Source: an uncultured Solirubrobacterales bacterium
GTDB lineage: Bacteria > Actinomycetota > Thermoleophilia > Solirubrobacterales > 70-9
Assembly (NCBI GenBank): GCA_963846165.1
Contig: CAWJUU010000004.1
Location: forward strand, 8,143 to 72,142
Length of the DNA: 64,000 nt
Direction: 5' to 3'
The notes beneath the pieces were generated by a model. That model saw only the letters and a list, made by a program, of their open reading frames with translations. It ran no database searches and was not told where the DNA came from. The translations under genes and the position numbers were made by a program. Shown piece after piece: positions 1-44,187 of the stretch. The first letter of the stretch is position 1, and each line of letters starts with the position of its first letter.

Positions 1-617
1 GTATCACGTCTCCTATCCGTTCGTCTTCTTCGTCGGAGAGGATGCGTACATGCTCCCCGAGACCGGGGCTAACCGCACCATCGAGCTGTACAAAGCCGAA
101 TCGTTTCCCAACGACTGGAAGCTCGAGGCGACCCTCCTGGATAACGTCAGGGCAGTCGACCCGACGCTGATCGAACACGACGGGCGCTACTGGCTCTTCG
201 CCAACGTCGCCGTCGAGGAGGCATCCAGGAACGACGAGCTCTCGCTGTTCTCAGCCGGTCTCCATCCTCGGCCCATGGGAGCCGCACCCCCGCAACCCGA
301 TCGTCTCCGACGTACGCCGCGCGCGTCCCGCCGGCCGCCCGTTCATCCACCGAGGCGGCAGCCTGATCAGGCCTTCCCAGGACTGCTCCGACTCCTACGG
401 CAGAGCGATCGTCTTCAACCGCGTCGAGCTGCTGAGCGAGGCGGACTACCGCGAGACGACCATCGGCAGGCTCGAGCCGGGGTGGTGCCGCGCGAATCTC
501 GGTACGCACACCTACTCCCGCTCGGAGACGTGGGAGGTCGTCGACGGGCGCGCCCTGGTGAGCAAGCTCGGCGGCTATCTCGATGCGAGGCGACCCCGTG
601 GTCGACAAGCCGGCTGA
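1..617 (+). pseudogene. EPS-associated beta-propeller protein (glucosamine-inositolphosphorylceramide-transferase-like family), 5' partial and frameshifted
   Basis: Frame 2 is open from the left edge (YHVSYPFVFF..DGRYWLFANV). After a shift near 255-265 the protein-like sequence continues in frame 0 (GPWEPHPRNPIVSDVRRARPAGRPFIHRGGSLIRPSQDCSDSYGRAIVFNRVELL), ending at TGA 615-617. Confidence 0.5.
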
Positions 618-633
618 GCGCCCGGGCGGTCCG

Positions 634-1761
634 ATGACTGAGTCCCGCCCGCGGGTGTTGTTCGTCAGCAGCGACGACTTCGACCTGCCTCTCGCGCCCG
701 CACTCGCCAAGAAGTGGGACGCGCTCTCCAAGGAATTCGACGTGCGATCGATCAGTCCGGCGGGGGCGGTGCGGGCGACGGATCCGAGATTCCGGTTGGT
801 GCGCCAAGCGCCGTCGCCCATCGGGCACCTCGTCTACTTCGCTTCGCTGCCGACCATCGTCGCGCTCGAGCTGCGCCGCTTCAGGCCCGACGTGATCGTC
901 ACCACAGGTCCCTATGAGGCATTCATGCTGCTGCCGGCGTGGAAGCTCGCGCGGCCGCACTCGAAGCTGCTGATCCAACTGCACGGAGACTGGCGGACCG
1001 CGCCGCGCCTTTATGGGTCGTCAGTCCGCCGCTTGTATGCCCGACTCAGTGACCGGGTTGCCGAGTTCGCACTCCGCCACGCCTCAGGCGTCAGAGCGCT
1101 CTCGGAGTTCACGGAGTCGCTGGCGCTGGAGGTCACGGGGCGCGGCCCGCTCTCCGTCTTTCCCGGGTACATCGATCTGGAGAGCTTTACGAGGGAGCCC
1201 CCACGATCGCTTCCCGATCGACCGTCCATCACCTGGATCGGAGTCCTTCAGAGATCTAAGAATCCCCGCCTGCTCGCCGACGCCTGGCGCCTCGTCGCCG
1301 CGCGCACGACCGCGGCGCGACTGGTGGTGGTCGGCCAAGGCCCCGAGCAGCCGATCGTCGACGAGCTCGTGCGCGACTTCCCGACCCGCGCGACGAGTCT
1401 CTCCTCGCTGAATCCCCCCGAGATCGCGAGGCTCCTCGACGACAGCACCGTGCTGGTCATGTCGTCCGAATCGGAGGGGCTGCCCAGGGTGATCATGGAG
1501 GCGTTCACCCGCGGGCGCCCCGTCGTGGCCACCGCCGTCGGTGGCGTGCCGGACATCGTGAAGACCGGCCGCAACGGAATGCTCGTCCCGAGCGGGGACG
1601 CCCAGGAACTCGCGGACGCGCTGGTTCGGGTCCTGGATGATCGGGCGTTCGCCGAGCAGCTTTCGCGCGGAGCGCTCGAGGATGCGGACCGGTTGCGCTG
1701 CACGCCCAGGGAATTCTCGACGGCGTTTCGCCAGTTCGTGGATTCCGCCCTCAGCGCCTGA
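634..1761 (+). CDS. glycosyltransferase family 4
   Basis: ATG at 634 (MTESRPRVLFVSS). C-terminal GT4 EX7E region SESEGLPRVIMEAFTRGRPVVATAVGGVPDIV. Confidence 0.85.
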   Translation: MTESRPRVLFVSSDDFDLPLAPALAKKWDALSKEFDVRSISPAGAVRATDPRFRLVRQAPSPIGHLVYFASLPTIVALELRRFRPDVIVTTGPYEAFMLLPAWKLARPHSKLLIQLHGDWRTAPRLYGSSVRRLYARLSDRVAEFALRHASGVRALSEFTESLALEVTGRGPLSVFPGYIDLESFTREPPRSLPDRPSITWIGVLQRSKNPRLLADAWRLVAARTTAARLVVVGQGPEQPIVDELVRDFPTRATSLSSLNPPEIARLLDDSTVLVMSSESEGLPRVIMEAFTRGRPVVATAVGGVPDIVKTGRNGMLVPSGDAQELADALVRVLDDRAFAEQLSRGALEDADRLRCTPREFSTAFRQFVDSALSA

Positions 1762-2890
1762 TCGCGGCCATTGCGAGCTCCCGCTCGAGGGCCTCGAATA
1801 TCGGTTCGACGCGATACCTGCCGCTGACAGTGCGGGCGCCCTCGCGCAAGGTCTCCCGCAGCTCGGGATCCTCGACCAGCGAGGCCATCGCAGCTCCGAA
1901 CGCTCGCGAGTCACCAGGCGATACCAGGATCCCGTTGACGCCCGTCTCGACGATCTCAGGGACACCGCCGACCGAGGTGGCGATGACCGGCGTCCCCGCG
2001 GCCAGTGCCTCGACGGCCGCGTGGGGGAAGTTCTCGAACTTGCTTGGCAGGATCGCGGCATCGGCGGCGCGCAGCCACTCGATCGCCGCGGCGCGGGGAA
2101 GCGCCCCCTTCAGCGAGATTCGCTCGCCGACGCCGCTCTTCGCGATCATCCGGATCAGATCTTCGCGCTCAGGGCCGTCGCCGATCACGACGAGTGACGC
2201 GTCAGGGACCGCACCCAGAGCCGTTATCGCCAGCGGCAGGTTCTTCGCGTCGACGAGGCGGCCCACGAAGACGAACGTGGGGAACCGGATCCCCAGCCGC
2301 CCGCGCAGCTCGTCCCTCGAGGTGAGTCGATCAATGCGCGGTGCAGGATTGGGAACGACGGATATCCGGTCGGCTGGGAGCCCCCAACCGCATGCGATGT
2401 CGGCGAAGAAGCGGCTCGGAATGACCACGCGCGAAGCCCTCGAAAGGGTGAGCCGCCTCAACCATTTGAGAGCGCGCACGGAGCTCTGGGTCTGGCGCCC
2501 CTGGAACTCCTCCAGCGTGCCGGAAAAGACCCCGAGCGAGCGCGCGCGGTCGTAGGCGGGATCATTGACCAGCTTGAGCACGAGCGGCACGCGGTGGAGA
2601 ATCGACGCGAGCGCACTCCTTGCGTACATGCCGGTCGCGTAGATCACGTCCGCTCGCCTCGCGGCCGCGATAACGGCCATTGCTCCAGCGGGCAGCCGGA
2701 TTAGCAGTTGCCGGTCACTTCGCGACATCGTCAGCGGAAATCCCGGATCCAGCGCCCCGGCCTTGCGGGCGGTGGTGACGGCGCGCACCTGATGACCACG
2801 ATCGATAAGGAACTTGCCGAACTCCGGGCCGTGGGAGGCCGGCCCGCCGACCTCGGGTGGCCAGATCCCGGAGACGATCAGGACCCTCAT
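1751..2890 (-). CDS. glycosyltransferase family 4
   Basis: MRVLIVSGIWPPEVGGPASH N-terminus. SKFENFPHAAVEALAAGTPVIATSVGGVPEIVETGVNG motif. Confidence 0.85.
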   Translation of the reverse strand: MRVLIVSGIWPPEVGGPASHGPEFGKFLIDRGHQVRAVTTARKAGALDPGFPLTMSRSDRQLLIRLPAGAMAVIAAARRADVIYATGMYARSALASILHRVPLVLKLVNDPAYDRARSLGVFSGTLEEFQGRQTQSSVRALKWLRRLTLSRASRVVIPSRFFADIACGWGLPADRISVVPNPAPRIDRLTSRDELRGRLGIRFPTFVFVGRLVDAKNLPLAITALGAVPDASLVVIGDGPEREDLIRMIAKSGVGERISLKGALPRAAAIEWLRAADAAILPSKFENFPHAAVEALAAGTPVIATSVGGVPEIVETGVNGILVSPGDSRAFGAAMASLVEDPELRETLREGARTVSGRYRVEPIFEALERELAMAAIRR

Positions 2891-2940
2891 GGCCGGCAGA
2901 ACCCCGCCCTCGCCTAGACTCGGACCCTCTCCTCACCGGG

Positions 2941-3839
2941 ATGATCATGACCAGTCAGCCGTCAAGAGCGCTCTCCAGAACGGCCCCCCAAGCCGAGCCG
3001 AGGGGCCCGGACGTGATTGGCATCGGCGCCCAGCGAACCGGATCGTCGTGGATGTATGCGTGCATGTATGAGCATCCCCAGATCTGCATGCCGCGAAAGG
3101 AGATCAACTTCTTCAGCCGCGAGCGCAACTGGAGTCGAGGCTTCGAGTGGTACGAGGGCATCTTCGCGGAGTGTCCGGCGACCGCGGTTTGCGGTGAGTT
3201 CTCCACCTCCTACCTGCCGGACCCCGAGACTCCGCGGCGCATCCACGATCGCTACCCGGATGTGCGCCTGATCGTCTCTCTCAGGCACCCGGCGGAGCGG
3301 GCGTACTCGAGCTACCTCAACGACATCCTCGCCGGTGTGGTGTCGCCGAAGCAGGGCTTCCCGGAGGCGCTCGACGCCCATCCGGAGTACATCGAAGGCA
3401 GCCGATACGGCCACCATCTGAGCAACTTCCTCGAACTGTTCTGCCGCGATCAGATCCTGGTCTCGATGTTCGACGAAGCGCGCCGGGATCCGCTTGCCAC
3501 CGTTCGGCAGATCTACCGGTTCCTCGACGTCGACCCGGAGTTCCGGCCACGATGCTCGACCGCCCGGTCGGCATCGGTCGCGTCCCCAGGTCGCAGGGCG
3601 CGGAACGCTCGATGCTCGAGCTCGCCGAGGCCTTTCGGCATCGACGGGCGCTGAGGCCCGTGTGGTGGATGGCCAAGAAGTCGGGAATCGGCGATCGCTT
3701 TCGGGCTCTCAACACGCGCGCCGTGAAATCGGGTGGGCTGGATCCAGAGGATCGCCGCGCCTTCATCTGCGAGCTCGAGCCTGACGTCAGGGTCCTGGAG
3801 GACCTGCTTGATCTCGAGCTGTCCGCCTGGCGCTCGTGA
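2941..3839 (+). pseudogene. PAPS-dependent sulfotransferase (ST1), one frameshift near 3545
   Basis: 5'-PSB loop GAQRTGSSW and 3'-PB LRHPAERAYSSY. The C-terminus continues in another frame (PMLDRPVGIGRVPRS...LELSAWRS). Confidence 0.75.
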
Positions 3840-4677
3840 GGCGCCCGACAGTCGCGCCGCGACCGCTGCATCGTCTTCCTCCACATCCCGAAGACCGGCG
3901 GGGTGACGCTGCGGCGGACGCTGAAGCGGAAGTACTCGCGGATCCTCTCCGAGGACGACCCTCGATCCCGGGTCGCTCCGAGGCGCTCGCGCGGGTGCCG
4001 CTGAGCGAGCGCGCGGCCGCGCAGGTCGTCGCCGGGCACCTGCACTACGGCGTCCACGAGTACATCCCGCGAGAATGTGACTACATCACCGTCCTCCGCG
4101 AGCCGGTCGCGCGGGTCGTCTCCGCCTACAACCACATCCTCGAACACCCCAAGCACGTACTGCACGCCGAGCTCGTGCGCTCCAGCGAGCCGCTGGAGAC
4201 CTTCCTGCGCATCGATCCGACCGTCGACAATCACCAGACCAGGATGGTCTCGGGCCGCGGTGGCGCTGAGCTCACAGCGAGGTCGCCGGAGCCCGGGGGC
4301 CCCGAAGCGCTCGAGGAGGCGAAGCGAAACCTCGAGCGGTTCCTAGTCGTCGGCGTAACGGAGCGCTTCGACGAGACGTTCATCCTGCTCCGGCGCGCGC
4401 TGGGATGGAGGCTGCCCTTCTACGTGACCGCCAACGTCGCCGGCGGGCGACGCCGGTCAGCGAGTCCGCCCGCGAGCTGATCCGCAAGCGCAACCAGCTC
4501 GACGTCGAGCTGTATCGGTTCGCCGACAGGCTGCTCTCCACCGCGATCGCCGAGCAGGGCCCCTCGTTTCCGCGCGAGGTCGCGGCGTTCAGGGCCCTGA
4601 ACCGGGTGCCCAACGTGGCGAACCGGCATCTGTCAGGGCGAGCCCGCCGGATCCTTCGGGCCGCGCTCCCGCGCTGA
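3836..4677 (+). pseudogene. sulfotransferase family 2-like (ST2), about three frameshifts (near 3855, 3958, 4445)
   Basis: GTG 3836 overlaps the ST1 stop. CIVFLHIPKTGGVTLRRTLKRKY lies in frame 0 and VLREPVARVVSAYNH in frame 2. The C-terminus (ELIRKRNQLDVELYRFA) is in frame 1. Confidence 0.7.
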
Positions 4678-4694
4678 GTCCGAGACAGCGAAGA

Positions 4695-5864
4695 GTGCGA
4701 GCCAAGCTCAGTCGGCCAAGCTGGCGCACTCTAGTATCGGCATCCTCGGTGGCCGAACTCCCAGGGATCCTCACGGGGCGCCGCATTGCTCACTTCGGCC
4801 ACCACGATCCGCACTATTCGCGCAATCGGATAATCGCGCGGGCGCTGTCGCTCTGTGGCGCAGAGGTCACGCAGATCGCGGATCGGCGGCCGTTCGTCCG
4901 GCGTACGCCGCGCCTGGTCGGCAAGGTCGCTCGCACTGAGGTCGACGCGATCGTGGTGGGATTTCCGTCCCATTCCGACGTGCCTGTCGCGCGCGCGATC
5001 GCGCGTGCGAAAGGCATCGCCACCGTGTTCGATCCGCTGACCTCGCGGTGGGAGAACGCCGTCATCGATCGCCGGGCGGTTGCGCCGCGGAGCATTCGCG
5101 CCACTCGCTACCGGCTGAACGACAGCGTGGCCTGTCGGCTCGCGGACCTGGTCTTGCTCGACACCCAGGCTCACATCGACTTCTTCTGCGAGGAATTCGG
5201 CCTCGCGCCGGCGAAGTTCCGGCGGGTCTGGGTGGGTTCCGACGAACAGATCATGAAGCCGCTCGAAGCGCCGCAACGCAGGGACGACTTCGTCGTCTTC
5301 TTCTACGGGAGCTTTCTCCCGTTCCAGGGAGCCGAGTACATCGTTCGGGCGGCTCGCCTGCTCGAGCAGCGACGGGAGCAGGTCCGTTTCGTGCTCTGTG
5401 GTGACGGACCGACATACAAGGCCGTGCGCGGCCTCAGCGAGCGACTCGCGGTCGGCAACGTGGAGTTCCTGCCGCCCTGCTCCGTCGAGCGACTGGCGGC
5501 TCTCATCGGCGCAAGCGACGTCTGCCTGGGGGTGTTCGGTACGAACGCGAAGGCGCTGCGCGTGATCCCCAACAAGGTGTTCGACGCGCTCGCGTGCCGG
5601 CGCCCCTTGATCACCGGCGACGCCCCCGCCGTCCGCGAGGCGCTGACGGACCAAGAGCACGTCTGGCTCTGTCGGTTCGGCGACGAAGAGGCGCTCGCGG
5701 ACGCGATCGCGACGCTGCGGCACGACCGGCGGCTGCGCGATCGACTCGCGCACAACGGGCACGAGCTGTTCCGCCGCCGCTTCTCGACTGCCGCGCTGGC
5801 TCCGGAGATCGGCAGGATCGTGCGCGGGGCGATCGATGGCTCAGGCGTCGCGAGGGCGGGCTGA
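4695..5864 (+). CDS. glycosyltransferase (GT4-like)
   Basis: Intact 389-aa ORF. Rossmann-type C-terminal half (FVVFFYGSFLPFQGAEYIV..VIPNKVFDALACRRPLITGD). Confidence 0.7.
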   Translation: MRAKLSRPSWRTLVSASSVAELPGILTGRRIAHFGHHDPHYSRNRIIARALSLCGAEVTQIADRRPFVRRTPRLVGKVARTEVDAIVVGFPSHSDVPVARAIARAKGIATVFDPLTSRWENAVIDRRAVAPRSIRATRYRLNDSVACRLADLVLLDTQAHIDFFCEEFGLAPAKFRRVWVGSDEQIMKPLEAPQRRDDFVVFFYGSFLPFQGAEYIVRAARLLEQRREQVRFVLCGDGPTYKAVRGLSERLAVGNVEFLPPCSVERLAALIGASDVCLGVFGTNAKALRVIPNKVFDALACRRPLITGDAPAVREALTDQEHVWLCRFGDEEALADAIATLRHDRRLRDRLAHNGHELFRRRFSTAALAPEIGRIVRGAIDGSGVARAG

Positions 5865-5910
5865 TGGGCAGCAGGGGGATGCTCGAACAGGCGTTGCCTG
5901 CGTGGCGCCG

Positions 5911-6993
5911 ATGATCGCGCCCGAGGCGAGACGGGGGCTCGGGGTCATCTTCATCTCCCAGGCGGTCGATTGCGACGATCCGGTCGTGCCGCACACCGTC
6001 CGGTGGATCGAGGCGCTGGCGCGCAAGCCGAGCATCGATCGGGTCGCCGTTCTGGCGCTGCGCACCGGCCGCTACGAGCTTCCGGGAAACGTCGCCGTCG
6101 ACCGGTTCGGCAGATCGAACAGGCTCGGCACGCTCGCGGCGTTCTATCGCGGCGTCGTGCGTTCACTGCGCCGCCGGCCCGACTTGATCTTCATCCACCA
6201 GGGCGGGCCCTATCCGGCGCTGCTGCTGCCCGTCAAGCTGTTGGCGAGGACCCCAGTCGTCCAGTGGAAGGCGCACGGTGTCATCACTCGCGCGATGGCG
6301 TTCTACGCCCGCCGGTGCGACGACCTGATCTTCACGGCCACGCGCGCGTCGTTTCCGATGCGGATGGCGAAGGTCCGCGTCGTGGGACACGGCATCGATA
6401 CACAAGCCTTCAGCAGCCACGCAGAGGAACCGGTGGGCGATCTGATCGCCGTCGGCCGAATAGCGCCGATCAAGTGCATCGAGGAGATGGTCAGGGCGGT
6501 CGACCACGCCAACCGGACGTACGGGACGGCGTACCGTCTCGACATCTACGGCCCGACGCTGCCGGGCGACGAGGGATACGCGGCGCGGGTCGACACGCTC
6601 ATCGACCGGCTCGGAGCGCGCGACCGCATCGCGCTCCACGGGCCCGTGCTGCACGCGGATCTGCCGCGCCTGCTAAACGCACACCGGGCCGCCCTGAACT
6701 TCTCCAACCATCGCGCAATCGACAAGTCCGCGCTCGAGGCCATGGCATGTGGCCTTCCGGTGATCTCCACGAACGAGTCCGTAGCCGAGATCATGCCGAG
6801 CGGTCTCGAGCCTGTCCTGATCACCGACGCGGAGAACGAAGAAGCCCAAGCGAAGGCGATCCATGGGGTGCTGCGACAGGAGCGCACCGAGATCGCAGCG
6901 CTGGGCGAACGGATGCGCGCCGTGGTTGTCGCCGATCACAGCATCGACCGGCTCTTCGACCGGATCCTGGAAGACGTCCGGACGCTGCTGTGA
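5911..6993 (+). CDS. glycosyltransferase (GT1/GT4 superfamily)
   Basis: ATG 5911 (MIAPEARRGLGVIFISQ). IDKSALEAMACGLPVISTNES motif. An alternative start at 5836 is possible. Confidence 0.75.
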   Translation: MIAPEARRGLGVIFISQAVDCDDPVVPHTVRWIEALARKPSIDRVAVLALRTGRYELPGNVAVDRFGRSNRLGTLAAFYRGVVRSLRRRPDLIFIHQGGPYPALLLPVKLLARTPVVQWKAHGVITRAMAFYARRCDDLIFTATRASFPMRMAKVRVVGHGIDTQAFSSHAEEPVGDLIAVGRIAPIKCIEEMVRAVDHANRTYGTAYRLDIYGPTLPGDEGYAARVDTLIDRLGARDRIALHGPVLHADLPRLLNAHRAALNFSNHRAIDKSALEAMACGLPVISTNESVAEIMPSGLEPVLITDAENEEAQAKAIHGVLRQERTEIAALGERMRAVVVADHSIDRLFDRILEDVRTLL

Positions 6994-7814
6994 GCTCGCG
7001 CTGGAAGCAAGGCATCAGGAACACGCTGGTGAGGGCGGGCGGCGCAGCCGTCGCCGTCCGCGGCCCGAAGGCGGGCAAGCGTGCGCTCGCGTTCCACGAA
7101 GTGCCCGACCCCGCGCGGTTCGCGGAGTTCCTCGACCGGGTTCTTGCCGAGTACGACGTCCTTGCGCTGCAGGACTGGCTCACGGCACCTCCGGCCGACC
7201 GGACTCAGCTCACCCTGACCTTCGACGACGGATACGCGTCGTGGCACGAGTTCGTCGCGCCCCTGCTCGAGGAACGCGGCCTGCCGGCCGTGTTCTTCGT
7301 GAGCTCGGGCCTGGTGGGCTTGCGCGGAAGCGAGGCGCGGGAGTTCGCCCGCACCCGCCTTCGCCGCACCCAGGAGCTCACGTTCATCGGCGCGCGTGAG
7401 CTCGAGGACCTCGTGCGACATCCCCGATTCGAGATCGGGGGCCACACCGTTACACACGCCGATCTCGGACAGATCACCGACCCGGACATCGCCCGCGCCG
7501 AGATCGCCGGCGACCAGGCGTGGCTGGAGGACCTGGTGGGCGCCCCGGTGCGCTGGTTCGCGTACCCGTTCGGAAACCACGCGAACGTCGCGTCGACGGC
7601 TCGGTCGCTCGTGGAGGCGCTCGGCATGTCGGCGGCGTTCACCCTGATTCCGGGCTGGTGGGATCCCGGTAAGGGGGACAGGTTCCTGATCGGACGCGAC
7701 GGGATCGACCCAGCGCTTCCGTACGCCGTCTGGCGCGCCTGGCTGCGCGGTGGCTATGACCGCTTGTTCTCGGTCAAGACGGCCGCCACGAGCTTGGTCC
7801 GCTCGAGCGGTTGA
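6990..7814 (+). CDS. polysaccharide deacetylase (CE4)
   Basis: GTG 6990 overlaps the upstream stop. LTLTFDDGYASW (TFDDG motif), IGGHTVTHADL (HxxxH), WFAYPFG. Confidence 0.8.
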   Translation: MSSRWKQGIRNTLVRAGGAAVAVRGPKAGKRALAFHEVPDPARFAEFLDRVLAEYDVLALQDWLTAPPADRTQLTLTFDDGYASWHEFVAPLLEERGLPAVFFVSSGLVGLRGSEAREFARTRLRRTQELTFIGARELEDLVRHPRFEIGGHTVTHADLGQITDPDIARAEIAGDQAWLEDLVGAPVRWFAYPFGNHANVASTARSLVEALGMSAAFTLIPGWWDPGKGDRFLIGRDGIDPALPYAVWRAWLRGGYDRLFSVKTAATSLVRSSG

Positions 7815-7904
7815 ACGCCTGCTAGCTGCGGTCGACTTACTTCGCCCGTCGTCCGGCAGGCTGAACGGGCTCACATTGGCGAGGGCGGATACGGAGAGTG
7901 CTGA

Positions 7905-7982
7905 TCGTCCGGCGGCTGCTTCATCTTCCCCAACGACGTGGCGTTCCTGGACGTCCTCAAGGACGCCGGATTCACTCGCTGA
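7905..7982 (+). pseudogene. short fragment homologous to the CE4-2 deacetylase segment at about 8764-8830
   Basis: The translation SSGGCFIFPNDVAFLDVLKDAGFTR* matches SSFIFPKNHLGFLDVLSDAGFTAY further downstream. Confidence 0.4.
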
Positions 7983-7983
7983 T

Positions 7984-8161
7984 CGCCGACAAGAAGAGCA
8001 CCAGCTGCAGGCACAGATGATCCACGAGTTGCTCAGCAGGCCCGAGACGGAGATCGCCCGGCTCGGAAAGCGGATGCGCGCGCTGGTGGTGTCGGAGCCA
8101 CAGCATCGAGCCGCTCTTCGACCGCATCCTGGAGCAGATCAGGACATTGGATCGGCGCTGA
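7984..8161 (+). pseudogene. C-terminal remnant of a glycosyltransferase paralogous to the gene at 5911-6993
   Basis: QEEHQLQAQMIHELLSRPETEIARLGKRMRALVVSE then (shifted) HSIEPLFDRILEQIRTLDRR*. This aligns to NEEAQAKAIHGVLRQERTEIAALGERMRAVVVADHSIDRLFDRILEDVRTLL*. Confidence 0.55.
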
Positions 8162-9149
8162 GGAAGGCCTTCACACGCATAAGCCGATCAAAATTCATAC
8201 GCCGGGCGGGCCGGCTACTGAAGACCGGGTCGACCCATGTTCCGGATTATCAGCGCTACCTGTCGCTCTTAAAGGCCGAACGGAGCTCATTTGCGGGTCG
8301 GACGTTCAACCTGACGATCGACTTTGAGCTCGGCTGGTCACGCGCACGGCGCGACGGCGGATCGACCACCCGTCAGGAGGCCTTGCAACGGGCTCAGCGC
8401 GCCCGCGCCGCCTTCCCGGCGTTACTCGAGGCGAGCGATCGGTACGCGGTGCCGATCACCTTTGCCGTAGTCGGTCATCTCGCGATGGCCCGCTGCGAGC
8501 ACCCGCCAACGCCCGCCTTCGCACCGTATTGGCTGGGAGAGGATTGGTTCGCGATCGATCCGAGCACGGACGGGGATAGGGATCCCGCCTATTACGCGGC
8601 AGACGCGATCGAGGCGATCGCCCGCGGCGATGTGGCTCATGAGATCGGAAGTCACGGCTTTTCTCACGTCGACCTCGGAGATGACGCTACGACGCGCGAA
8701 ATCGCCACCTATGAAATCGTCGAATCGAGAAACGCTCTGCGAAGATACGACCCGGCCATTTCGAGCTTCATCTTTCCCAAGAACCATCTCGGATTCCTGG
8801 ACGTTCTCAGTGACGCCGGATTCACCGCCTATCGCTCGGGCGCCTACCTGCCATCGATCGAGATGAACATGGCATGTGGCGCTTTCCCAAGGGCCTGTGG
8901 CTCTCGCCGCAGGCATGCAGTCCTGACGAGGTGCTCGCTCTTGCAGATGTCGCCAAGGCCCAGCAACAGCTCATCCACACGTGGTGCCACCTTCACGAGT
9001 TTGCCTCGGCGAAGGAGGCGGGCGCGTACTTCTCCGCGCTCTTTCGGGGATTGGCCGATCGGCGTCAGCGCGGCCTGACGGTGCGAACCATGCGCGATGT
9101 GGTTAGAGAGGAAGCAGCGGCCCTCTCCACGAGGGAGACGCCTTTGCCC
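8017..9149 (+). pseudogene. polysaccharide deacetylase family protein (CE4-2); uncertain start, frameshift near 8860
   Basis: NLTIDFELGW, PITFAVVGHLA and HEIGSHGFSHVDL motifs. There is no ATG/GTG/TTG between the GT remnant and the domain, so the only in-frame ATG (8017) lies inside the remnant. The C-terminus is in frame 0 and runs without a stop into the next gene. Confidence 0.55.
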
Positions 9150-10077
9150 ATGAGCCCTGACCCTGCGTCCGCGTCGCGCGGCGACTCTCCGATCTTCGTG
9201 GTGGGGGTCGCGCATTCAGGGACCACGATCCTTCATCGGATGCTGGCCTACCACCCCGCGCTCGCTTGGTTCTCTCAGTTCTCGCTTCGAGGCGGCGAGA
9301 TCCGGGGTCGGTCGCGCATCCCGGGAGCCGGCCTTATGGACAGGCAGCTTCGGTCGATCCCTCATCGCTGGCAGAAGCAGAAACCCAGCTTCCGACGGCC
9401 GCCTCTGACGCCTCGCCCGGGCGAGGCGTCGGACGATTTGGGCCGACCTCATCAATGATGGCCGCGAGTTCGCCTCGGTGGAGGAACTCGACGAATCGAC
9501 GCCGGGTTCCGGCGGCCCGAGGAGCGCCAGCGCGACGATCGACGGGGACCGGCTGCGATCATGTCTGGCGGCGTTCAGCGAGCAATTCGAGGGCCGACGA
9601 GTGCTGGCCAAGCTCCCTCCTCCCGACTTCTCCCGCTATCTCGAGCCGGTCCAGACGGCCTTTCCCGGCGCCCTGTTCGTGCACATAGTCCGCGATGGGC
9701 GGCCCGTTTCATTCAGCCTGCGGCCGAAGTTCGAACCGAGGCTGGATGCTCGCAGCGCGCTGCTCGCCGCGGCCCGCCACTGGGTGGCCACGCTTGATCG
9801 AGTCCATGCAACTCGCGAGACCGACCTGCTCGAGGTGCGCTACGAGGATCTCTGTGAGGACGTGCACGGGGTCATCCGGACGATTCTCGACCGCGCCGCC
9901 CTCGACCCGGAGGCGTTTCCCTTCGGGCGATGCCCATCACGGCTCTCGCAGACGAACTCGCGCTGGGTGGACCAGGCGACGCCCCGGGAGCTCGAGGAAG
10001 TGTCCGAGATTCAGCGCGAGCAGCTGAACCGGTTCGGGTATCCGCTGGTGTTGGCGGCCGCCGGCAGCTTTTCGTGA
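9150..10077 (+). pseudogene. sulfotransferase (ST3), one frameshift near 9432
   Basis: IFVVGVAHSGTTILHRMLAYHP (5'-PSB) and VHIVRDGRPVSFS (3'-PB). It is a paralogue of the gene at 10085-10888 along its whole length. Confidence 0.7.
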
Positions 10078-10084
10078 GCGGCTG

Positions 10085-10888
10085 ATGCAACCTGAGCTCT
10101 CACCCGTCCTCGTGTGCGGGGCCCCGCATTCGGGGACGACGATCCTCTACCGCATGCTCGCCTATCACCCGGATCTGACGTGGTTCTCGCAACTCTCGCT
10201 GGGTAACGGCGAGATCCCCGGCCGCCGCACCCGCCCAGGGGCCGGCCTTCTCGACGTCAAGCTTCGGCGCGTTCCCCACTCGTGGCGGAAGGAAGAGTCC
10301 AGGCTGAGGCGACTCGTGGTCCCACTCCCCAGTGACGAGACGACGATCTGGGAGTACCTGCTGGAGGACGAGAGCACGGACGCCGAACGTGTGCGCTCGT
10401 GCCTGGCGTCGTTCAGCGAGCGCTTCGGCGGTCGCCGGATAGTCGCAAAATGGCCCGAGTTCCACCGATTCCTCGACCTCCTTCACGCTTCCTGTCCCGA
10501 TGCGCTCTATGTCCACATCGTCCGCGATGGCCGCCCGCTCGCCTTCAGCATCCGGGAGAAGTTCGAGCGTCGTCGGCTCGAGCCTCACGACGCCCTCCTC
10601 GCCGCCGCCCATCACTGGGTCGAAGTGCTCGAGAGCGTCCGCGCCGCACGGGGGATCGATCTGCTCGAGGTCCGCTACGAGGACTTCTGCGAGGACGTCC
10701 ATGGGGTGATTCGGAACATCCTCAGCCGCGGCCGCCTGGACGCCGAGCGGTTTCCCTTCCGGCGCTGCCCGCCGACGCTCTCGGCCCGAACCAACACGCG
10801 GTGGATCGACGAAGCTTCGCCTGAGGAGCTCACCCAGGTGTCCGAGATTCAGCACGACCACCTCGTCGAGTACGGGTACTCGGCGTGA
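10085..10888 (+). CDS. sulfotransferase (ST4)
   Basis: Intact 267-aa ORF with VLVCGAPHSGTTILYRMLAYHP and VHIVRDGRPLAFS. Confidence 0.8.
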   Translation: MQPELSPVLVCGAPHSGTTILYRMLAYHPDLTWFSQLSLGNGEIPGRRTRPGAGLLDVKLRRVPHSWRKEESRLRRLVVPLPSDETTIWEYLLEDESTDAERVRSCLASFSERFGGRRIVAKWPEFHRFLDLLHASCPDALYVHIVRDGRPLAFSIREKFERRRLEPHDALLAAAHHWVEVLESVRAARGIDLLEVRYEDFCEDVHGVIRNILSRGRLDAERFPFRRCPPTLSARTNTRWIDEASPEELTQVSEIQHDHLVEYGYSA

Positions 10889-12419
10889 GCGCATGGTTGT
10901 CCTCCGCTCCGGGTGCGGAGGTCGCTGACGTCATCCGCGCGATCGCAGCCAGGGCGCCGATGAACAGGGCGGGGACTACCGTGTCAACCTGGCCACCGAA
11001 GAGGGGATTGTCGTTGCTCCAGATGATCACGAGCAGCAGGCCGAGGCTCATCGTCCACGCCTGGGGCCAGAGTTCGTGCTCTCGGCCGATGCGGCGAAGG
11101 AGCGCTCGCACTCGCAGGGCTACGATGACGATCAGCGCGACGAGGAGGGCGAACCCGACGAGGCCCAGGTCGGCGAGGATCTGAACGTAGGTGTTGTGGA
11201 CGGAGCCCGGCTTCACGTCCGGGTAGAAGATCGGACGGGCATCGGGAAACCGGCGCCGCACCTCGATTGCAATTTCCCGATCGCCGATCACTTGCGGCGC
11301 GCTGCTCTGCCGCCAGCCCGCCCCGACGATGGGATTGCGCTCGAAGATCTCGAGCCCCGCCGCCCCCAGGATGATGCGCTGGGCCGCGGAGCTGTTCCTG
11401 AACGACTCCGAGGACGGGGACACCTCCGGCCGCAGGAACTGAACCGCGCTGAAGACCAGGACCCCGGCCAGAGCCACCGCGAGCACCGCGCGCGTGGCGC
11501 GGTGTGGGGCGGCAGCGGGGGACCTGCTCGCGAGGCTCGCTCCGAGCGCGAGAACGAACCCGGTCGCCACGAGTGAGGCCACGGACTTTGTGAGCAGGAG
11601 GCCCAGCAGTCCGGTCGCCCCCAGCGCAACTCTGTAGGGGGCCTTCGACGTCACTGCGCCGAATGCGGCGATCAGCAGCAGTAGACCCGAGACCAAGCCG
11701 AGCGCGTTCGGGCCCAAGGAACCTCCAGATCGGTCCGTCAGCAAGCTTCCTCCGCTGAGCGCGCCGTCGGCGACCGCGACCACACCCGCGGCGGCTACGG
11801 CGCCCAGGATCAGACGGATGTCGCCCTTCGTCTCGATCAGGCTCGCGGCGAGCCACGCGAGTGAGGCCGTCTGGACCAGGCGCAGCCAAGAGACGAAGGC
11901 GCTTCCAACAGCGCCCGAGTCGGAGGTCGCGACCGTGACGAGCGTCAACCCTGCGTAGGCGAGAAAAACAATCGCGATGGCCTGTCCGAAAGCAATCCGC
12001 GGCCGTTCGTCTGGCACGCTCCGCCCCGCGCGCTCGACGACTCCCACGAGCCACCAGGCGACCGCTCCCAGGTAGAAGACGTCGGCCAGATTCACGTCCA
12101 CGTCCCCGAATTGGCCGAACACCGGGAGAAAGCCGGTGATCGTCAGCGCTCCGATCGCCGCCAGGCAGGTCTGCGGGCCGGTCATGATCAAGGCGGCGCA
12201 CACCAGGCCCCCGACGGTCAGCACCACGGCCGAATCCAGGGCCAGGCCGAATCCGTTGAACCGGGCAACCGCCCAGCCGAGGACGAGGGCAAGCGCGGCC
12301 AAGCCGGCGAGCAGGGGCAGATCGGCCGAGGCGCCCCCGGGCCACGGCGTTCGTGAGCGAGTCACGATCGGCGAGGGCCGGGGCGTCAGCTCGGGTGCTT
12401 GTCCGCCACGAGCTTTCAC
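10830..12419 (-). CDS. wzy: O-antigen ligase/polymerase family membrane protein (Wzy-like)
   Basis: More than 10 predicted TM helices. Wzy_C-like SVHNTYVQILADLGLVGFALLVALIV. Start uncertain. Confidence 0.7.
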   Translation of the reverse strand: MKARGGQAPELTPRPSPIVTRSRTPWPGGASADLPLLAGLAALALVLGWAVARFNGFGLALDSAVVLTVGGLVCAALIMTGPQTCLAAIGALTITGFLPVFGQFGDVDVNLADVFYLGAVAWWLVGVVERAGRSVPDERPRIAFGQAIAIVFLAYAGLTLVTVATSDSGAVGSAFVSWLRLVQTASLAWLAASLIETKGDIRLILGAVAAAGVVAVADGALSGGSLLTDRSGGSLGPNALGLVSGLLLLIAAFGAVTSKAPYRVALGATGLLGLLLTKSVASLVATGFVLALGASLASRSPAAAPHRATRAVLAVALAGVLVFSAVQFLRPEVSPSSESFRNSSAAQRIILGAAGLEIFERNPIVGAGWRQSSAPQVIGDREIAIEVRRRFPDARPIFYPDVKPGSVHNTYVQILADLGLVGFALLVALIVIVALRVRALLRRIGREHELWPQAWTMSLGLLLVIIWSNDNPLFGGQVDTVVPALFIGALAAIARMTSATSAPGAEDNHALTPSTRTRRGGRAESRTPG

Positions 12420-12532
12420 CGAGTCGTGACGATAGTCGGCCGGTGCCTGGGATTCCTGGCTCCTACGCGGCGCGCGCGATGCAGTGCAATTCGGCCTTGC
12501 CGCGCCCTGCTCGCCAAGCTAGGGCACCATCG

Positions 12533-13975
12533 TCAGTAGCCTGCGCTCAGATTTCCGGGTCGCAGTCCGGGTGCTCTTTTCTCCGGGGGCAGGCGTTCCG
12601 CTTCGTCGAGAAGCCGGTTCGCCACGAAGTACAGGGGCACTTGGGTCGCAACGTACGTGAATGAGACCGCGATCGCGGCCCCCGTGGCTTCGAAGCGGGC
12701 CAGGAGCGCGATCCCAGAAATCAGGAGGACCGCGAACGCCACCTCGTATGCGGTCTGTAGGCCGGGACGGCCGATTGCCGGGAAAAACATCTTCGCCCAG
12801 GCCAGGGCCAGGTGGACGACCGTCGCGACCAGGAGGATGCGCGCGGGGCCAATCGCGTCCTCGAATTGATCCGAGTAGAAGGCTGGCAGAAGCACGGGGA
12901 GGAGGAACCATCCGGCAACGGCTGCCGGCAGCGCGATCGCCAACCCAATCCGTGTTGCGCCCCTGATGGTCGTGCGAAGACCGTCGATATCGCCTTCAGA
13001 CGCCTGGCGCGCCTGTTCGGGAAACAGCAAGAGCCGCAGTGGCGCGGTGGCGAGGCTGGCAACGGTGAACGGAAACAAGGCCACCGAGAAGATGCCTACC
13101 GTTTGCGCACCCGCCAGCGATCCGAGAATCACCGGCGCCGCCGACCGCTGCGCACCCTGGACGCTCGTTGCGACGCTCGAGAAGATGCCGAATGAGCGCA
13201 GCTTTCCCAGCCACTCGCGTGCGCCCTCTTGCGGCTCCGCGCGATCCCACTTGCTCCATCCGACGCGCCAGGCGAGCCCACCTTGAATCAAGGCCCCGGC
13301 GAAAGCAGCAGCCGCATACGCGACCAAGACCTCCTGCGGACCCCCGACGCCAACCGCCCAGAGCACTCCGATGAGGCGCAGGACGCTGGTCCCGAACATC
13401 ACCCAAGCGCGCAGTTCGCGGCGCTTTGCCAGCAGCAGCACCGCTCCTGTCGTCCCGTCGACAGTTTGGGCGAAAGCGATCACGACGGCGATTCGGACCA
13501 GAGATGCATCGGCCTCCCCGCTGCCGAGGAGGTCGCTCAGCGGGCCGGCGAGACCCAGAATCAACGCCCCGACCGCCAGGCCGATCCCCAGGTCCACCGC
13601 GAACGCGATCCGCAGCAGCGTTCGCAAGCCGCCGAAGTCCTTCGCCGTGAGCGCGCGATAGCCATGATGGACGACCGCCTGCTCCAGGGTCAGGTCGAGG
13701 AGAGTCGCGATCAGGGTGACAACGGCGATCGCCAGCACGACGGATCCGTAACCGTCCGGGCCGAGCTCCCGGGCAGCCACGATGCCTGTGATCAGCGCGA
13801 CTGCCGCGGCTGCCCAGATCGCGATCGAGGCGGACCCGGCGCGTCGCCACCACGTCCTATCCGTCCAAAAGGCAGGCTCTTGAACGTCTGGCCAGCCAAG
13901 CTCTGAGCCGGCGCTCAGGCCCCCTCCGGGATCTTCGACCGGTGGGCGGTCTTTCGGAACCCGTGGTCGCCTCAC
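12533..13975 (-). CDS. wzx: polysaccharide/oligosaccharide flippase (Wzx, MOP superfamily)
   Basis: 480 aa and polytopic, with the typical lipopolysaccharide-biosynthesis-protein architecture. It sits next to wzy. Confidence 0.7.
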   Translation of the reverse strand: MRRPRVPKDRPPVEDPGGGLSAGSELGWPDVQEPAFWTDRTWWRRAGSASIAIWAAAAVALITGIVAARELGPDGYGSVVLAIAVVTLIATLLDLTLEQAVVHHGYRALTAKDFGGLRTLLRIAFAVDLGIGLAVGALILGLAGPLSDLLGSGEADASLVRIAVVIAFAQTVDGTTGAVLLLAKRRELRAWVMFGTSVLRLIGVLWAVGVGGPQEVLVAYAAAAFAGALIQGGLAWRVGWSKWDRAEPQEGAREWLGKLRSFGIFSSVATSVQGAQRSAAPVILGSLAGAQTVGIFSVALFPFTVASLATAPLRLLLFPEQARQASEGDIDGLRTTIRGATRIGLAIALPAAVAGWFLLPVLLPAFYSDQFEDAIGPARILLVATVVHLALAWAKMFFPAIGRPGLQTAYEVAFAVLLISGIALLARFEATGAAIAVSFTYVATQVPLYFVANRLLDEAERLPPEKRAPGLRPGNLSAGY

Positions 13976-14080
13976 GCCCGAGCGACGGGGCAGGCTCTGA
14001 CTCGTCCGCGCACGCTATCCACCGGGCTGGGGGGACCGGCTCCAGGAGGCAGTGTCACTCCCCTACTATGCCGAAGTTCG

Positions 14081-15637
14081 GTGTCGATCACGGCAATACT
14101 GGGGGATGGCACGGTGCCGGAACGGCCTGCAGCAGACCCAAATCGCCCACTGAGCGTGGTCGGCCTTCTTCGCCGGCGCTTTCTCGTGATCCTGATTCCG
14201 GCGCTCCTCGTCCCAGGGGTGGCGCTTGCGTTGACCCTCCAGCAGGAGAAGCAATACGAGGCTTCGACCTCCCTGCTCTTCCGCGACTCGGGGCTCGGCT
14301 CCACGGTGCTCGCCTCCGCGGACCCCGATCGTGAGGCGGCGACCAACCTGCGCCTGCTGCAGCTCGACGCGCTCGAGAGCAAGGTCAATGCCGACCGTAA
14401 TCATCCGTTCCCGGGCGACGTCGACGTGGTCACCGAAGCGGAGTCCAATCTGGCGACGATCACCGCGACCGATACCAAGCCCAGGCGCGCCGCCCGCATG
14501 GCGGATGCGTTCGCCCAGGAGTACATAGCGCTCCGCGAGAAAGCAGTTGACCGCGAGATCGAGCTGGAGCGAACGGCGGTTAACGAAGAGCTTTCACAGA
14601 TTCCGCTCACGACCCAACCCGGGGGGGCCCAGCTGGGGCAGGGAGGACTGAAGCGCCGGGGCCGGCGGGCGGAGGCGCTCAAAGAGCGCCTGAAGGAACT
14701 CACCATCGCCGGGGTGGCCCCAATCGGCGTCCGCCAGGTCCAGCGGGCCGAGGTCCCTTCGTCCGCAGTATCGCCGGACCCGGTCCGCAACACGGTGGTC
14801 GGTGCCATCCTCGGCCTCGCGCTTGGGATCGGGTTCGCGATCTGGCTCGAGCGGCGTGACACACGCATGAGGGATGCTCGCGATCTCGAGGCCGCGTTTG
14901 GGCAGCCGATCCTCGGCCGGATTCCCCAGAGCCGCAAGCTTGCCAAGTCGAGCCCGGGCACCGGCGCCCTCGCATCACCGGAGGAGGAGGCCTTCCGCAC
15001 GCTGCGGGCCAACCTTCGGCACGTTCTGCAAGAAGGGGCACGATCGGTGCTGGTGACTTCCGCCAATCCGGGCGAGGGCAAGACGACCGTCGCCTGGAAT
15101 CTGGCCCGCGCCGAAGCGGCGTCTGGAGCCAAGGTGCTGATGGTTGAGGCGGACATGCGGCGTCCGGTTCTCGCCCGCAGCCTCGGCGCTGTCGGGGCGC
15201 CGGGGCTGAGTCAGCTGCTGACTGCGGAAGGCCGCCTCGAGGACTTGGTCCAGTCGATCGGGTTCGAGGAAAGTGAGAACGGCAACGCTTCGACGGGGAG
15301 GGTCGATGTGTTGCTCGCGGGGACTCCACCCTCCAATCCGGCGGAGCTGCTGGACTCGGACCGGATGCAGGCCGTGCTCGAAACGATGCCCGAAGCCTAC
15401 GACCTGGTCGTGCTCGACACTCCGCCTGCCTCCGTCGTCTCGGACGTGATCCCGATGTTCGAGTCAGTTGGCGGCGTGGTGGTCGTCGGCCGTTTGGGTA
15501 TGACCACATACGAGTCGATCAGAGAGCTTCGCGACCAGCTCGAGAATCTCGACGCGCCGTTGCTTGGGGTGGTCGTCAACTCCGATCTGACGAACGTCAA
15601 TGCCGCGAAGTACTCCTACGCGGCTACGACGAGTTGA
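14081..15637 (+). CDS. polysaccharide co-polymerase (Wzz-like) fused to a BY-kinase
   Basis: N-terminal TM + Wzz region, second TM, then Walker A SANPGEGKTTVAWNLA, A' VLMVEADMRRP and B DLVVLDTPP. The C-terminal tail has a short KYSY. Confidence 0.85.
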   Translation: MSITAILGDGTVPERPAADPNRPLSVVGLLRRRFLVILIPALLVPGVALALTLQQEKQYEASTSLLFRDSGLGSTVLASADPDREAATNLRLLQLDALESKVNADRNHPFPGDVDVVTEAESNLATITATDTKPRRAARMADAFAQEYIALREKAVDREIELERTAVNEELSQIPLTTQPGGAQLGQGGLKRRGRRAEALKERLKELTIAGVAPIGVRQVQRAEVPSSAVSPDPVRNTVVGAILGLALGIGFAIWLERRDTRMRDARDLEAAFGQPILGRIPQSRKLAKSSPGTGALASPEEEAFRTLRANLRHVLQEGARSVLVTSANPGEGKTTVAWNLARAEAASGAKVLMVEADMRRPVLARSLGAVGAPGLSQLLTAEGRLEDLVQSIGFEESENGNASTGRVDVLLAGTPPSNPAELLDSDRMQAVLETMPEAYDLVVLDTPPASVVSDVIPMFESVGGVVVVGRLGMTTYESIRELRDQLENLDAPLLGVVVNSDLTNVNAAKYSYAATTS

Positions 15638-15700
15638 GCCGCGAAGCTGGAATTCAACAGTTCGCGCTTTCGCGGGTTACGAGCCGGGCGCCTCGCTCGG

Positions 15701-17639: not shown

Positions 17640-17752
17640 CCGACCTCCCTTTCGATCTCGGTCGCAGCGTAGCGCCCGGCCTCGGGATGCTGCGGGGAGC
17701 GCGACTTCCGCACCCCCTAGGCTGTTGAACCCTCAGGGGGGAACGCGGACCA

Positions 17753-21578: not shown

Positions 21579-21586
21579 GGCCGCCC

Positions 21587-28508: not shown

Positions 28509-29478
28509 GCGCGACGATGGTCCCCGGCTACCGGCACGTCCCCGGCAACCACTGCGGCTCGACCGCGCTTCGCAACCTGCTCGGCTTCGGCGGCGTCGCG
28601 ATCTCCGAGGAGATGGCGCTCGGGCTCGGCGCCGGCGTCTGCTTCTACTACTTCCCGCTCGACGGCCAGTCGCCGTCGCGGTTCACCAACGGGCGCGTCG
28701 CGCGGCTCGAGGAGCAGTTCCTCGAGCTCACCGGCCTGCCGCTCTCCTTGCGGACCTTCGACGCGCCCGATCAGTCCTGGGAGGCGGCGCGCGCCGCCGT
28801 CGACGCCGGCAGCCCCGCGCTCCTGCTCACCGACCTCTACTACCTCGACCACTACGGCAACTCCGCCCACTTCCCCGGCCACGCGGTGGTCCTCGCCGGG
28901 TACGACGACGAGCTCGCGTATCTGTCCGACACCGCCTTCGACGAGCTGCAGACGACCCGGCTCGAGAACCTCGCCCGGGCGCGGCACGGCAAGCACCCGG
29001 TGTTCGCGCTCGAGGGCCACATGGTCACCCTGCCCGACCGACGCGCGAGCTCGGCGACCCGCGCGAGGCCGCCGACCGCGCGATCGAGCGCAACGCGCGG
29101 CAGATGCTCGAGCCCGCGGCCGGCGAGTACGAGGGCCTGCCGGCGCTGCGCCGGTTCGCGGCCGAGGTCGGCGAGTGGCCGGCTGAGATCGAGGACTGGC
29201 AGTGGTGCGCGCGCTTCGGCTACCAGGTGATCGAGCGCCGCGGGACCGGCGGCGGCAACTTCCGGCTCATGTACTCGCGCTTCCTCGCCGAGGCGGGTCG
29301 TGACGAGGCCGGGCTCGCCGCCCGCGGCGCCGAGCAGTGGACCGGGCTCGCGACCGCGCTGCTCGCGGCGAGCGAGTCCGAAACGCCCGAGCCCGAGCTC
29401 TGGGAGCCGATTCGCGAGCGCGCCGCCGCCGTGCTCGAGACCGAGGAGCGCCTCTGGCCGGCGCTCGCGGGCGCCTAG
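28505..29478 (+). pseudogene. BtrH_N-like (papain-fold) + DUF4872-like protein, one frameshift near 29038
   Basis: VPGNHCGSTALRNLL..FPGHAVVLAGYDD (Cys/His pair). The C-terminus continues in frame 1 (TRELGDPREAADRAIERNARQMLEP...). Confidence 0.55.
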
Positions 29479-30491: not shown

Positions 30492-30549
30492 GGGATCGAC
30501 TTCTACCCGGCATGGCCAGGCGAACACAATGTCTGCCGAGCGAACGCCC

Positions 30550-44138: not shown

Positions 44139-44187
44139 GCACTCTCTACGGAGGCCGCGAACGCCGCGGTCCGCGATCCTAAGGGAG

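Follow-up and report, generated by a model that had tools for sequence, protein, structure and literature searches.

A conserved Wzx/Wzy-type polysaccharide locus with four sulfotransferase genes of three families in an uncultured Solirubrobacterales bacterium

We analysed a 64,000-nucleotide stretch of DNA (hereafter the window) from an uncultured Solirubrobacterales bacterium (GenBank assembly GCA_963846165.1, contig CAWJUU010000004.1, positions 8,143 to 72,142), the first 15,637 nucleotides of which hold a polysaccharide locus with four sulfotransferase genes (ST1 to ST4) and two polysaccharide deacetylase genes of the CE4 family (CE4a and CE4b). With a probability that we put at roughly 0.6, this is a working Wzx/Wzy-dependent locus that makes a heavily decorated, sulfated hetero-polysaccharide, and the frameshifts that interrupt several of its genes are errors in the consensus of a long-read assembly of mixed strains. 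This reading is carried by the gene content of the locus, the families and motifs of its proteins, the cytoplasmic location of the sulfotransferases and deacetylases as judged by their lack of transmembrane (TM) or signal segments, synteny with related loci, intact orthologs and purifying selection.

Plain lists of open reading frames were useless at the G+C content of the window (about 70%), so the gene map was drawn from a third-position GC frame plot combined with codon-usage Viterbi segmentation, and the resulting frames were scanned with Pfam. An earlier note on this DNA had described one contiguous polysaccharide locus with Wzx, Wzy, a Wzz-BY-kinase, four glycosyltransferases (GTs) and two CE4 deacetylases, and all of them were recognised within positions 1-15637, where the G+C content (0.65-0.69) is lower than in the remaining window (0.70-0.76). 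The four sulfotransferase genes that it had reported were likewise recovered and are of three Pfam types, all four exceeding the Pfam gathering cut-offs on frame-corrected translations. ST1 (2941-3839) is of the Sulfotransfer_1 type (PF00685, 51.1 bits against a cut-off of 22), ST2 (3836-4677) is of the Gal-3-O-sulfotransferase or Sulfotransfer_2 type (PF06990, 53.1 bits against 27, plus PF03567), and ST3 (9150-10077) and the intact, 267 aa ST4 (10085-10888) are both of the Sulfotransfer_3 type (PF13469, 68.9 and 77.5 bits, respectively, against 27); all lie on the forward strand. Each quoted motif of the loops that bind 3′-phosphoadenosine 5′-phosphosulfate (PAPS) was located in the gene stated: QRTGSSW (3031-3051) and RHPAERAYS (3283-3309) in ST1, HIPKTGG (3882-3902) and REPVARVVS (4097-4123) in ST2, HSGTT in ST3 (9210-9227) and ST4 (10124-10141), and RDGRPxxFS in ST3 (9691-9717) and ST4 (10523-10549). 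These eight motifs of the 5′-phosphosulfate-binding (5′-PSB) loop and the 3′-phosphate-binding (3′-PB) loop are invariant in family alignments and were aligned to solved enzymes; the canonical Lys is replaced by Arg or His in ST1 and ST3/4, as it is in TPST (PRSGTT).

For two of the four enzymes, ST1 and ST2, the closest proteins of known structure suggest that the acceptor is a carbohydrate. ST1 matched the PDB entry 3rnl over its full length (9.5e-23), the heparan sulfate (HS) enzyme 3-OST-1 (2.8e-18), 3-OST-5 and the N-sulfotransferase domain of NDST1 (1e-9). It is nearer to 3-OST than to NDST1, aligns with both 3-OST-1 and NDST1 at the 5′-PSB loop, the 3′-PB loop and the position of the catalytic Glu, and has the Glu of its GEFS segment aligned with that of the 3-OST-1 VEKT segment. 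The nearest solved relative of ST2 is HS 6-OST, with which it aligns (3e-8). Intact orthologs of ST1 have 299 aa (83-91% identity), and those of ST2 have 275-277 aa (86-88% identity) and are co-linear with it. ST4 is a paralog of ST3 (about 53% identity) with 220 homologs, and HSGTT and VRDGR...S are invariant in its family alignment; TPST, Stf1 and the CurM sulfotransferase are the solved relatives of this pair, the acceptor of which is not deducible from family membership. In five loci from Acidobacteriota and Krumholzibacteriales (L027, L036, L050, L051 and L073), motifs of sat, cysC and cysQ lie no more than a few kb from distant ST3/4-like genes. Those loci would own both PAPS synthesis and the removal of 3′-phosphoadenosine 5′-phosphate, which supports PAPS dependence of the family and says nothing about the Solirubrobacterales genome.

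Four intact GT genes surround the first two sulfotransferase genes: GT4a (583-1761, forward strand; PF13692/PF00534/PF13579), of 392 aa with orthologs of 392-393 aa; GT4b (1751-2890, reverse strand; PF00534, E 5e-39), of 379 aa like its orthologs; and the GT1-type genes GT1c (4695-5864, forward; PF00534/PF13692/PF13524) and GT1d (5836-6993, forward; PF13692/PF00534). The GTG start of ST2 lies within the stop of ST1 (GTGA), further overlaps occur between GT1c and GT1d and between GT1d and CE4a, and 7 nt separate ST3 from ST4; since this co-directional block consists of genes whose ends overlap or nearly abut, the genes from ST1 to ST4 are probably one operon. ST4 converges on the Wzy-type gene (10830-12419, reverse; PF04932, 56 bits against a cut-off of 31.7; about ten TM segments) with an overlap of 59 nt that is kept in relatives including L004, and the Wzy_C domain of its product is one in which polymerase and ligase are indistinguishable by sequence. 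Beyond it lie a Wzx-type flippase gene (12533-13975, reverse; PF01943/PF13440; about 11 TM segments) and a gene for a Wzz-like co-polymerase fused to a P-loop, BY-kinase-like ATPase (14081-15637, forward; PF01656/PF13614/PF02706/PF13807). The co-polymerase has two TM segments, the Walker A motif GEGKT and a short C-terminal Tyr pair; its P-loop domains score above the Pfam cut-off, and its Wzz and GNVR matches are weak and below it. At the other end, the window edge cuts a GINT1_N-domain gene, of which the 3′ part is present (1-617, forward; PF24793, E 1.4e-38 on the frame-merged translation). Its orthologs are intact at 535-573 aa, and the protein is conserved and shows weak similarity to GH43; in loci of this type its gene is placed amid those for GT4 enzymes. 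The locus extends past this edge: orthologous contigs carry GINT1_N, a further GT4 and then either a PF00953 transferase or Glf.

Whether the locus is conserved in related genomes had been left as a check in the earlier note; it does recur, and its sulfotransferase genes are intact in short-read relatives, not decayed. The closest genome loci belong to uncultured Solirubrobacterales metagenome-assembled genomes (MAGs) of the Microflora Danica long-read project, with ST4 identities of 93% in L005 and 87% in L009, and no cultured organism was found among the close relatives. Both these MAGs and metagenome contigs from soil preserve the locus, though in mosaic form. On a 24,260-bp short-read contig of JGI sample 3300056388, the four sulfotransferase genes, the two CE4 genes, Wzy and Wzx are all intact and follow one another as they do in the window: the contig begins with Glf, GT4, GINT1_N, GT4, GT4 (reverse), ST1 (299 aa), ST2 (277 aa), GT1 and GT1, continues with CE4 (274 aa), a CE4-like gene (310 aa), Methyltransf_21, ST3 (277 aa) and ST4, and ends with Wzy, a methyltransferase and Wzx, all three on the reverse strand. 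A 9,246-bp contig covers the left part as PF00953, GT4, GINT1_N, GT4, GT4, ST1 (299 aa) and ST2 (275 aa). Against the relatives, the locus divides into a block at 1-3851 that matches L009 at 89%; an ST2 cassette (3853-4691) that is absent from L009 and present in L003, L085 and L086; a GT1c-GT1d-CE4a block (4701-7834) that is 96-97% identical to L009 and L003, clearly above its flanks (84-91%); a CE4b block (7835-9125) without a counterpart in L009, L004 and L001; and a block at 9126-15650 that is common to all relatives (84-91%). The identity of the GT1c-GT1d-CE4a block suggests that it was recently exchanged between lineages. A tblastn survey of the neighbours in 80 genome loci was too insensitive for Wzx and Wzy to yield a prevalence. 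We also observed three tandem ST2-type (Gal-3-O-sulfotransferase-like) genes beside the Wzy/kinase genes of one related MAG (L012:16586-19193) and two to three ST2 paralogs on several metagenome contigs, for example an 8,059-bp contig with P0196, P0198 and P0237.

Both claimed CE4 deacetylases could be recognised, one by Pfam and the other by its predicted fold. CE4a (6990-7814, forward) is a canonical polysaccharide deacetylase (PF01522, 71.8 bits against a cut-off of 23.1) with the motifs TFDD, HTVTH and RWFAYP, and its nearest solved relatives are the poly-N-acetylglucosamine deacetylases IcaB (4wcj) and PgaB (4u10). CE4b (8017 to about 9149, forward) is divergent and borderline in the same search (22.8-23.5 bits against 23.1), and its true start is probably downstream of 8017. 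Its motifs are divergent, D102, E104, H208, H213 and H217 are invariant, and its family comprises 963 relatives that are mostly standalone, with orthologs of 305-335 aa. A profile search of the PDB with CE4b returned solely PuuE (E 0.05). An AlphaFold2 model of CE4b built with its family (pLDDT 82) gave HP0310, PgaB, PplD, PdaA and PdaC, all of them CE4 deacetylases, as top Foldseek matches at a probability of 1.00, and on the evidence of this model the predicted fold of CE4b is that of CE4. Hydropathy revealed no TM segments in CE4a or ST4, and the N-termini of CE4b and of ST1 to ST3 appear soluble as read by eye, without a signal-peptide predictor; within the CE4b family there are fusions to GT4, methyltransferase and hexapeptide-acyltransferase domains. 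Together these features point to deacetylation in the cytoplasm on the growing lipid-linked unit, and the lack of TM or signal segments in both the deacetylases and the sulfotransferases would allow de-N-acetylation and PAPS-dependent sulfation in one compartment.

Following CE4a there is an out-of-context copy of a CE4b segment (FIFPNDVAFLDVLKDAGFT, 7918-7972, forward), which repeats the CE4b segment FIFPKNHLGFLDVLSDAGFT at 8767-8823 and is probably a recombination scar where the CE4b block was inserted. Of the Methyltransf_21 gene that stands between the CE4-like gene and ST3 in the 24,260-bp contig, a few dozen bases are left in the window, where DNA alignments place the 3′-end remnant of an FkbM-type methyltransferase gene at 9100-9160 (forward, frame 2, ...EGDAFAHEP*). 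In the sequence as it stands, no stop separates the CE4b tail from ST3, and the two share one reading frame. We rejected a CE4b-ST3 fusion as an analogue of NDST: the junction is a deletion scar at which one added base brings back the ancestral stop (...AFAHEP*), ST3 is a separate gene in all relatives, and among the 150 best homologs of CE4b there is no fusion to a sulfotransferase. The continuity hangs on one nucleotide of error-prone sequence. A true in-frame fusion of CE4b and ST3 in the source genome, created by the methyltransferase deletion, has a low probability and would give a bifunctional deacetylase-sulfotransferase.

In Wzx/Wzy pathways the repeat is assembled on the cytoplasmic side of the membrane, with undecaprenyl phosphate as its carrier. 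In the Solirubrobacterales locus the lipid carrier would be primed by a WecA-like polyprenyl-phosphate HexNAc-1-P transferase encoded just beyond the left window edge; a PF00953 (WecA/MraY-type) gene lies upstream of the orthologous genes on the 9,246-bp contig and suggests HexNAc as the first sugar, the 24,260-bp contig has Glf in that place, and no PF00953 gene lies within the window. Five or so GT4/GT1 enzymes would assemble the oligosaccharide repeat at the cytoplasmic membrane face, their number suggesting a penta- or hexasaccharide. One or two cytoplasmic CE4 enzymes would strip N-acetyl groups from HexNAc residues, and as many as four soluble sulfotransferases from the three families, all PAPS-dependent, would sulfate the unit while it is still cytoplasmic; as PAPS is cytoplasmic, both kinds of enzyme would act before flipping. 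Wzx would then flip the unit, Wzy polymerise it, and the Wzz/P-loop kinase control chain length and output. We infer in this scheme the lipid-linked repeat as acceptor, the order of the steps, the presence of sulfate, the choice between O- and N-sulfation, and that between a secreted exopolysaccharide (EPS) and a cell-retained product.

The product had been called similar to a glycosaminoglycan (GAG) in the earlier note, a label that stands in part. ST1 and ST2 do resemble HS sulfotransferases, and a sulfated amino-sugar polymer would answer to it loosely; the pathway, by contrast, is of the Wzy and not of the synthase type. Heparosan, chondroitin and hyaluronan are made by a processive synthase that forms a HexA-HexNAc polymer, together with a UDP-glucose dehydrogenase. 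Pfam scans and reading of the window revealed no processive synthase, UDP-glucose dehydrogenase or other uronic-acid genes, only GT4 and GT1 types plus Wzy, and a Wzx/Wzy pathway with some five to six transferases, leading to a hetero-oligosaccharide repeat, does not fit GAG logic. The combination of a de-N-acetylase with sulfotransferases recalls NDST, but the polymer of the animal HS enzymes is made by a Golgi processive co-polymerase instead of a lipid-carrier Wzy system, the identity of the Solirubrobacterales proteins to them is at family level only, and the deacetylases here are separate proteins. N-sulfation of the polymer is possible, as the cytoplasmic de-N-acetylase and the sulfotransferases share one compartment. 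That the CE4s free HexNAc amino groups for N-sulfation by one of the sulfotransferases, ST1 being the obvious candidate, and that an NDST-like logic thus evolved independently on a Wzy pathway, we consider decidedly unlikely; to our knowledge there is no bacterial precedent for an N-sulfated polysaccharide made by such two-step logic.

As the earlier note had pointed out, three of the four sulfotransferase genes are frameshifted as sequenced. Only ST4 has an uninterrupted frame; ST1 and ST3 need one correction each and ST2 three. The ST1 lesion is a 1-nt deletion at 3547 (CC against CCC in L009, L085 and L086), and that of ST3 is a 1-nt insertion at 9430 (TGG to TCGG) relative to the short-read contigs L004 and L001. 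In ST2 the lesions lie at its start (about 3840-3850, near 3846), at 3956-3980, where there is a burst of five 1-nt insertions, and at 4443-4449. Two further lesions had been overlooked: a frame switch at 258-263 in the GINT1_N gene, which is an indel relative to L009, and one at about 8866 in CE4b, which is co-linear with its relatives across the frameshift. The lesions in ST1, ST2 and ST3 are most likely assembly errors rather than decay, and five kinds of evidence bear on this. Housekeeping genes of the window are split in the same way: an aldehyde dehydrogenase gene (16171-17727, reverse) has three frame changes, although its merged translation matches Pfam positions 1-461 in one stretch (E 9e-154), and an otherwise well-conserved PhoD phosphatase gene (19899-21584, reverse) has about five. 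Frameshift density reaches its window maximum of about 1.5 per kb in the 5-kb patch with these two genes, compared with about 0.07 per kb in 21.6-64 kb, where single frame breaks occur in a BtrH_N/DUF4872 gene (29045), a nucleotidyltransferase gene (AadA_C-type, 30780) and the histidine ammonia-lyase gene hutH (62801), the frame-merged translations of which all have Pfam domains spanning the junction. In short-read metagenome contigs of 86-93% identity the genes are unbroken: L001 and L004 have complete frames for ST3, ST4, Wzy, Wzx and the kinase, and L085, L086 and the 9,246-bp contig have intact ST1 (299 aa) and ST2 (275 aa) with an ATGA overlap. The CC/CCC lesion of ST1 is a change in homopolymer length. 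Loci of related Nanopore MAGs have every gene frameshifted, Wzy, Wzx and the kinase included, at positions other than those in the window, and these MAGs are Nanopore-only assemblies with one round of Medaka polishing (PMC12313526). Finally, dN/dS is 0.23 for ST1, 0.37 for ST2 and 0.26 for ST3, like that of the intact neighbours ST4 (0.25-0.34), GT1c (0.29), Wzy (0.23), Wzx (0.14) and the co-polymerase/kinase (0.24). With the exception of the one at 258-263, every lesion falls inside a strain-variable block or no more than about 300 nt from one, which fits a mixed-strain consensus, such blocks being where it would be expected to fail. Phase variation by slipped-strand mispairing was rejected, as the tracts are just 2-3 nt long and the lesions are heterogeneous.

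Several points weigh against a working locus for a sulfated polysaccharide. The lineage is uncultured; the priming enzyme comes from a single related contig; and no cysD, cysN, cysC, sat or cysQ was found in the 64-kb window (by Pfam on the frame-merged 16-64 kb and by motifs) or in the loci of close relatives. In the ST3/4 family, the members that have been characterised transfer sulfate to tyrosine, polyketides or lipids and not to sugars. Of the seven lesions of the locus, five fall in sulfotransferase genes, with a probability of about 0.008 if lesions are independent and 0.08 if counted per gene, lesions being clumped window-wide, and the burst at 3956-3980 in ST2 sits in a loop that varies in length among intact orthologs, so that part of it may be real. 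On a rival reading, which this enrichment favours, the sulfotransferase genes would be true pseudogenes in the strain, for instance through lost selection for sulfation or strain-level antigenic variation, with a product that is unsulfated or less sulfated. ST2, with its three lesions, has no in-frame start codon and is a cassette that L009 lacks, and the loss of the methyltransferase gene between CE4b and ST3 indicates a locus under remodelling. We nevertheless regard true decay as improbable: the aldehyde dehydrogenase, PhoD, HutH and other genes of the window are also frameshifted though otherwise conserved, no internal stops remain in the sulfotransferase genes after frame correction, and their dN/dS shows no relaxation relative to intact neighbours. 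Moreover, five 1-nt insertions within 25 nt are unlike natural mutation, and the orthologs are intact in every short-read contig examined.

A different objection accepts that the enzymes work and holds that the sulfotransferases, at least the TPST/Stf-like ST3 and ST4, are mere neighbours of the polysaccharide genes and act on a glycolipid, a menaquinone-type lipid, a small molecule or protein tyrosine. Their solved or characterised relatives (TPST, mycobacterial Stf1 and the CurM sulfotransferase) would agree with this, automatic names in metagenomes include menaquinone sulfotransferase, and many distant ST3/4 homologs lack a Wzx/Wzy neighbour detectable by tblastn. That survey is insensitive for Wzx and Wzy, however, and ST3 and ST4, which lie in one co-directional block with GTs and CE4s, keep their position and the convergent 59-nt overlap with Wzy in all close relatives; as ST1 and ST2 are in addition of carbohydrate-sulfotransferase types, we find such acceptors very doubtful. 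The destination of the product is a separate matter. With Wzy_C acting as ligase or polymerase, the product could be bound to the cell as a capsule, a wall-linked secondary polymer or a protein or S-layer glycan instead of being a free EPS, given that PF04932 includes O-antigen ligases as well as polymerases, that no gene of the locus specifies release, and that the product of an analogous Actinoplanes locus, wps-1, is thought to be part of the sporangium matrix (PMC13390465). We consider this rather unlikely, as Pfam scans of the window yielded neither a ligase of the LCP family nor a sortase or oligosaccharyltransferase, and a polysaccharide co-polymerase (PCP) with BY-kinase is typical of both EPS and capsular polysaccharide assembly; a cell-bound product would alter the destination and not the chemistry.

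Sulfated polysaccharides are valuable materials that are regarded as rare in bacteria, and two recent papers call those of bacteria essentially confined to cyanobacteria. The earlier note knew of no characterised Wzy locus with multiple sulfotransferases in high-GC Gram-positive bacteria, a statement that has been overtaken by wps-1 of Actinoplanes missouriensis (PMC13390465, June 2026). This locus has Wzx/Wzy/Wzz and two sulfotransferases, one of the heparan-sulfate type and one of the Gal/GlcNAc/GalNAc type, both required for normal sporangia, and sulfation of its product is predicted (PMC13390465). It shares with the Solirubrobacterales locus its phylum (Actinomycetota), the Wzx/Wzy/Wzz set, a methyltransferase (as in the relatives of the latter) and a sulfation that is predicted; compared by description only, it differs in having two sulfotransferases, GH26 and a kinase-like protein, with no CE4 reported, and in its host from the cultured Micromonosporales, where genetic work ties it to the formation of sporangia. 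The synechan locus xss of Synechocystis sp. PCC 6803 is likewise a multi-sulfotransferase Wzx/Wzy system, with a PCP, eight GTs, two sulfotransferases and a chemically proven sulfated EPS of the composition Rha:Man:Gal:Glc:sulfate 1:1:1:5:2 (PMC8205485). In both loci, Wzx/Wzy and a PCP are joined by numerous GTs and by two or more sulfotransferases from different bacterial subfamilies, and sulfation of the repeat in the cytoplasm is proposed for both. The xss locus, however, lies on a megaplasmid of a diderm cyanobacterium, with OPX encoded elsewhere, and has two sulfotransferases, no CE4 and the regulators XssQ/R/S, whereas the Solirubrobacterales locus belongs to a monoderm, has four sulfotransferases, two cytoplasmic CE4s and no such regulators, and is known from its genes alone. 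Several sulfotransferase genes also occur in the capsule locus of Vibrio sp. KMM 8419, an ABC-type locus with three sulfotransferases and cysDNC whose capsule is chemically sulfated (PMC11641403); it differs in its ABC transporter (Kps), its Gram-negative host and the presence of cysDNC inside the locus, and has neither Wzy nor CE4. The kind of system is thus already known, also in Actinomycetota, and the locus described here is not the first. It is set apart by its four sulfotransferases from three families and by their pairing with two cytoplasmic CE4s. The host, an uncultured order of Thermoleophilia that is common in soil, is new as well, and in this order several species-level relatives and many metagenome contigs keep the same architecture.

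Elsewhere in the window we noted a type IB topoisomerase gene (Top1B_N_bact plus Topoisom_I, 29476-30550, reverse) and a long co-directional block at 44176-51810 (forward) that holds, in order, ccmA/B/C-like heme exporter genes, hemA, hemC, a cobA/hemD fusion, a SAM hydroxide adenosyltransferase gene and birA. This block is ordinary housekeeping, unconnected to sulfur metabolism.

For work on long-read MAGs in general, these findings mean that frameshifted genes should be checked against short-read relatives before they are called pseudogenes. For the organisms themselves, they mean that an abundant uncultured order of soil actinobacteria carries a conserved gene set of unusually high sulfation capacity. 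If the product is confirmed, sulfated EPS would reach the terrestrial Thermoleophilia, engineers would gain a compact set of soluble carbohydrate sulfotransferases of bacterial origin, and the locus would be a place to look for bacterial N-sulfation.

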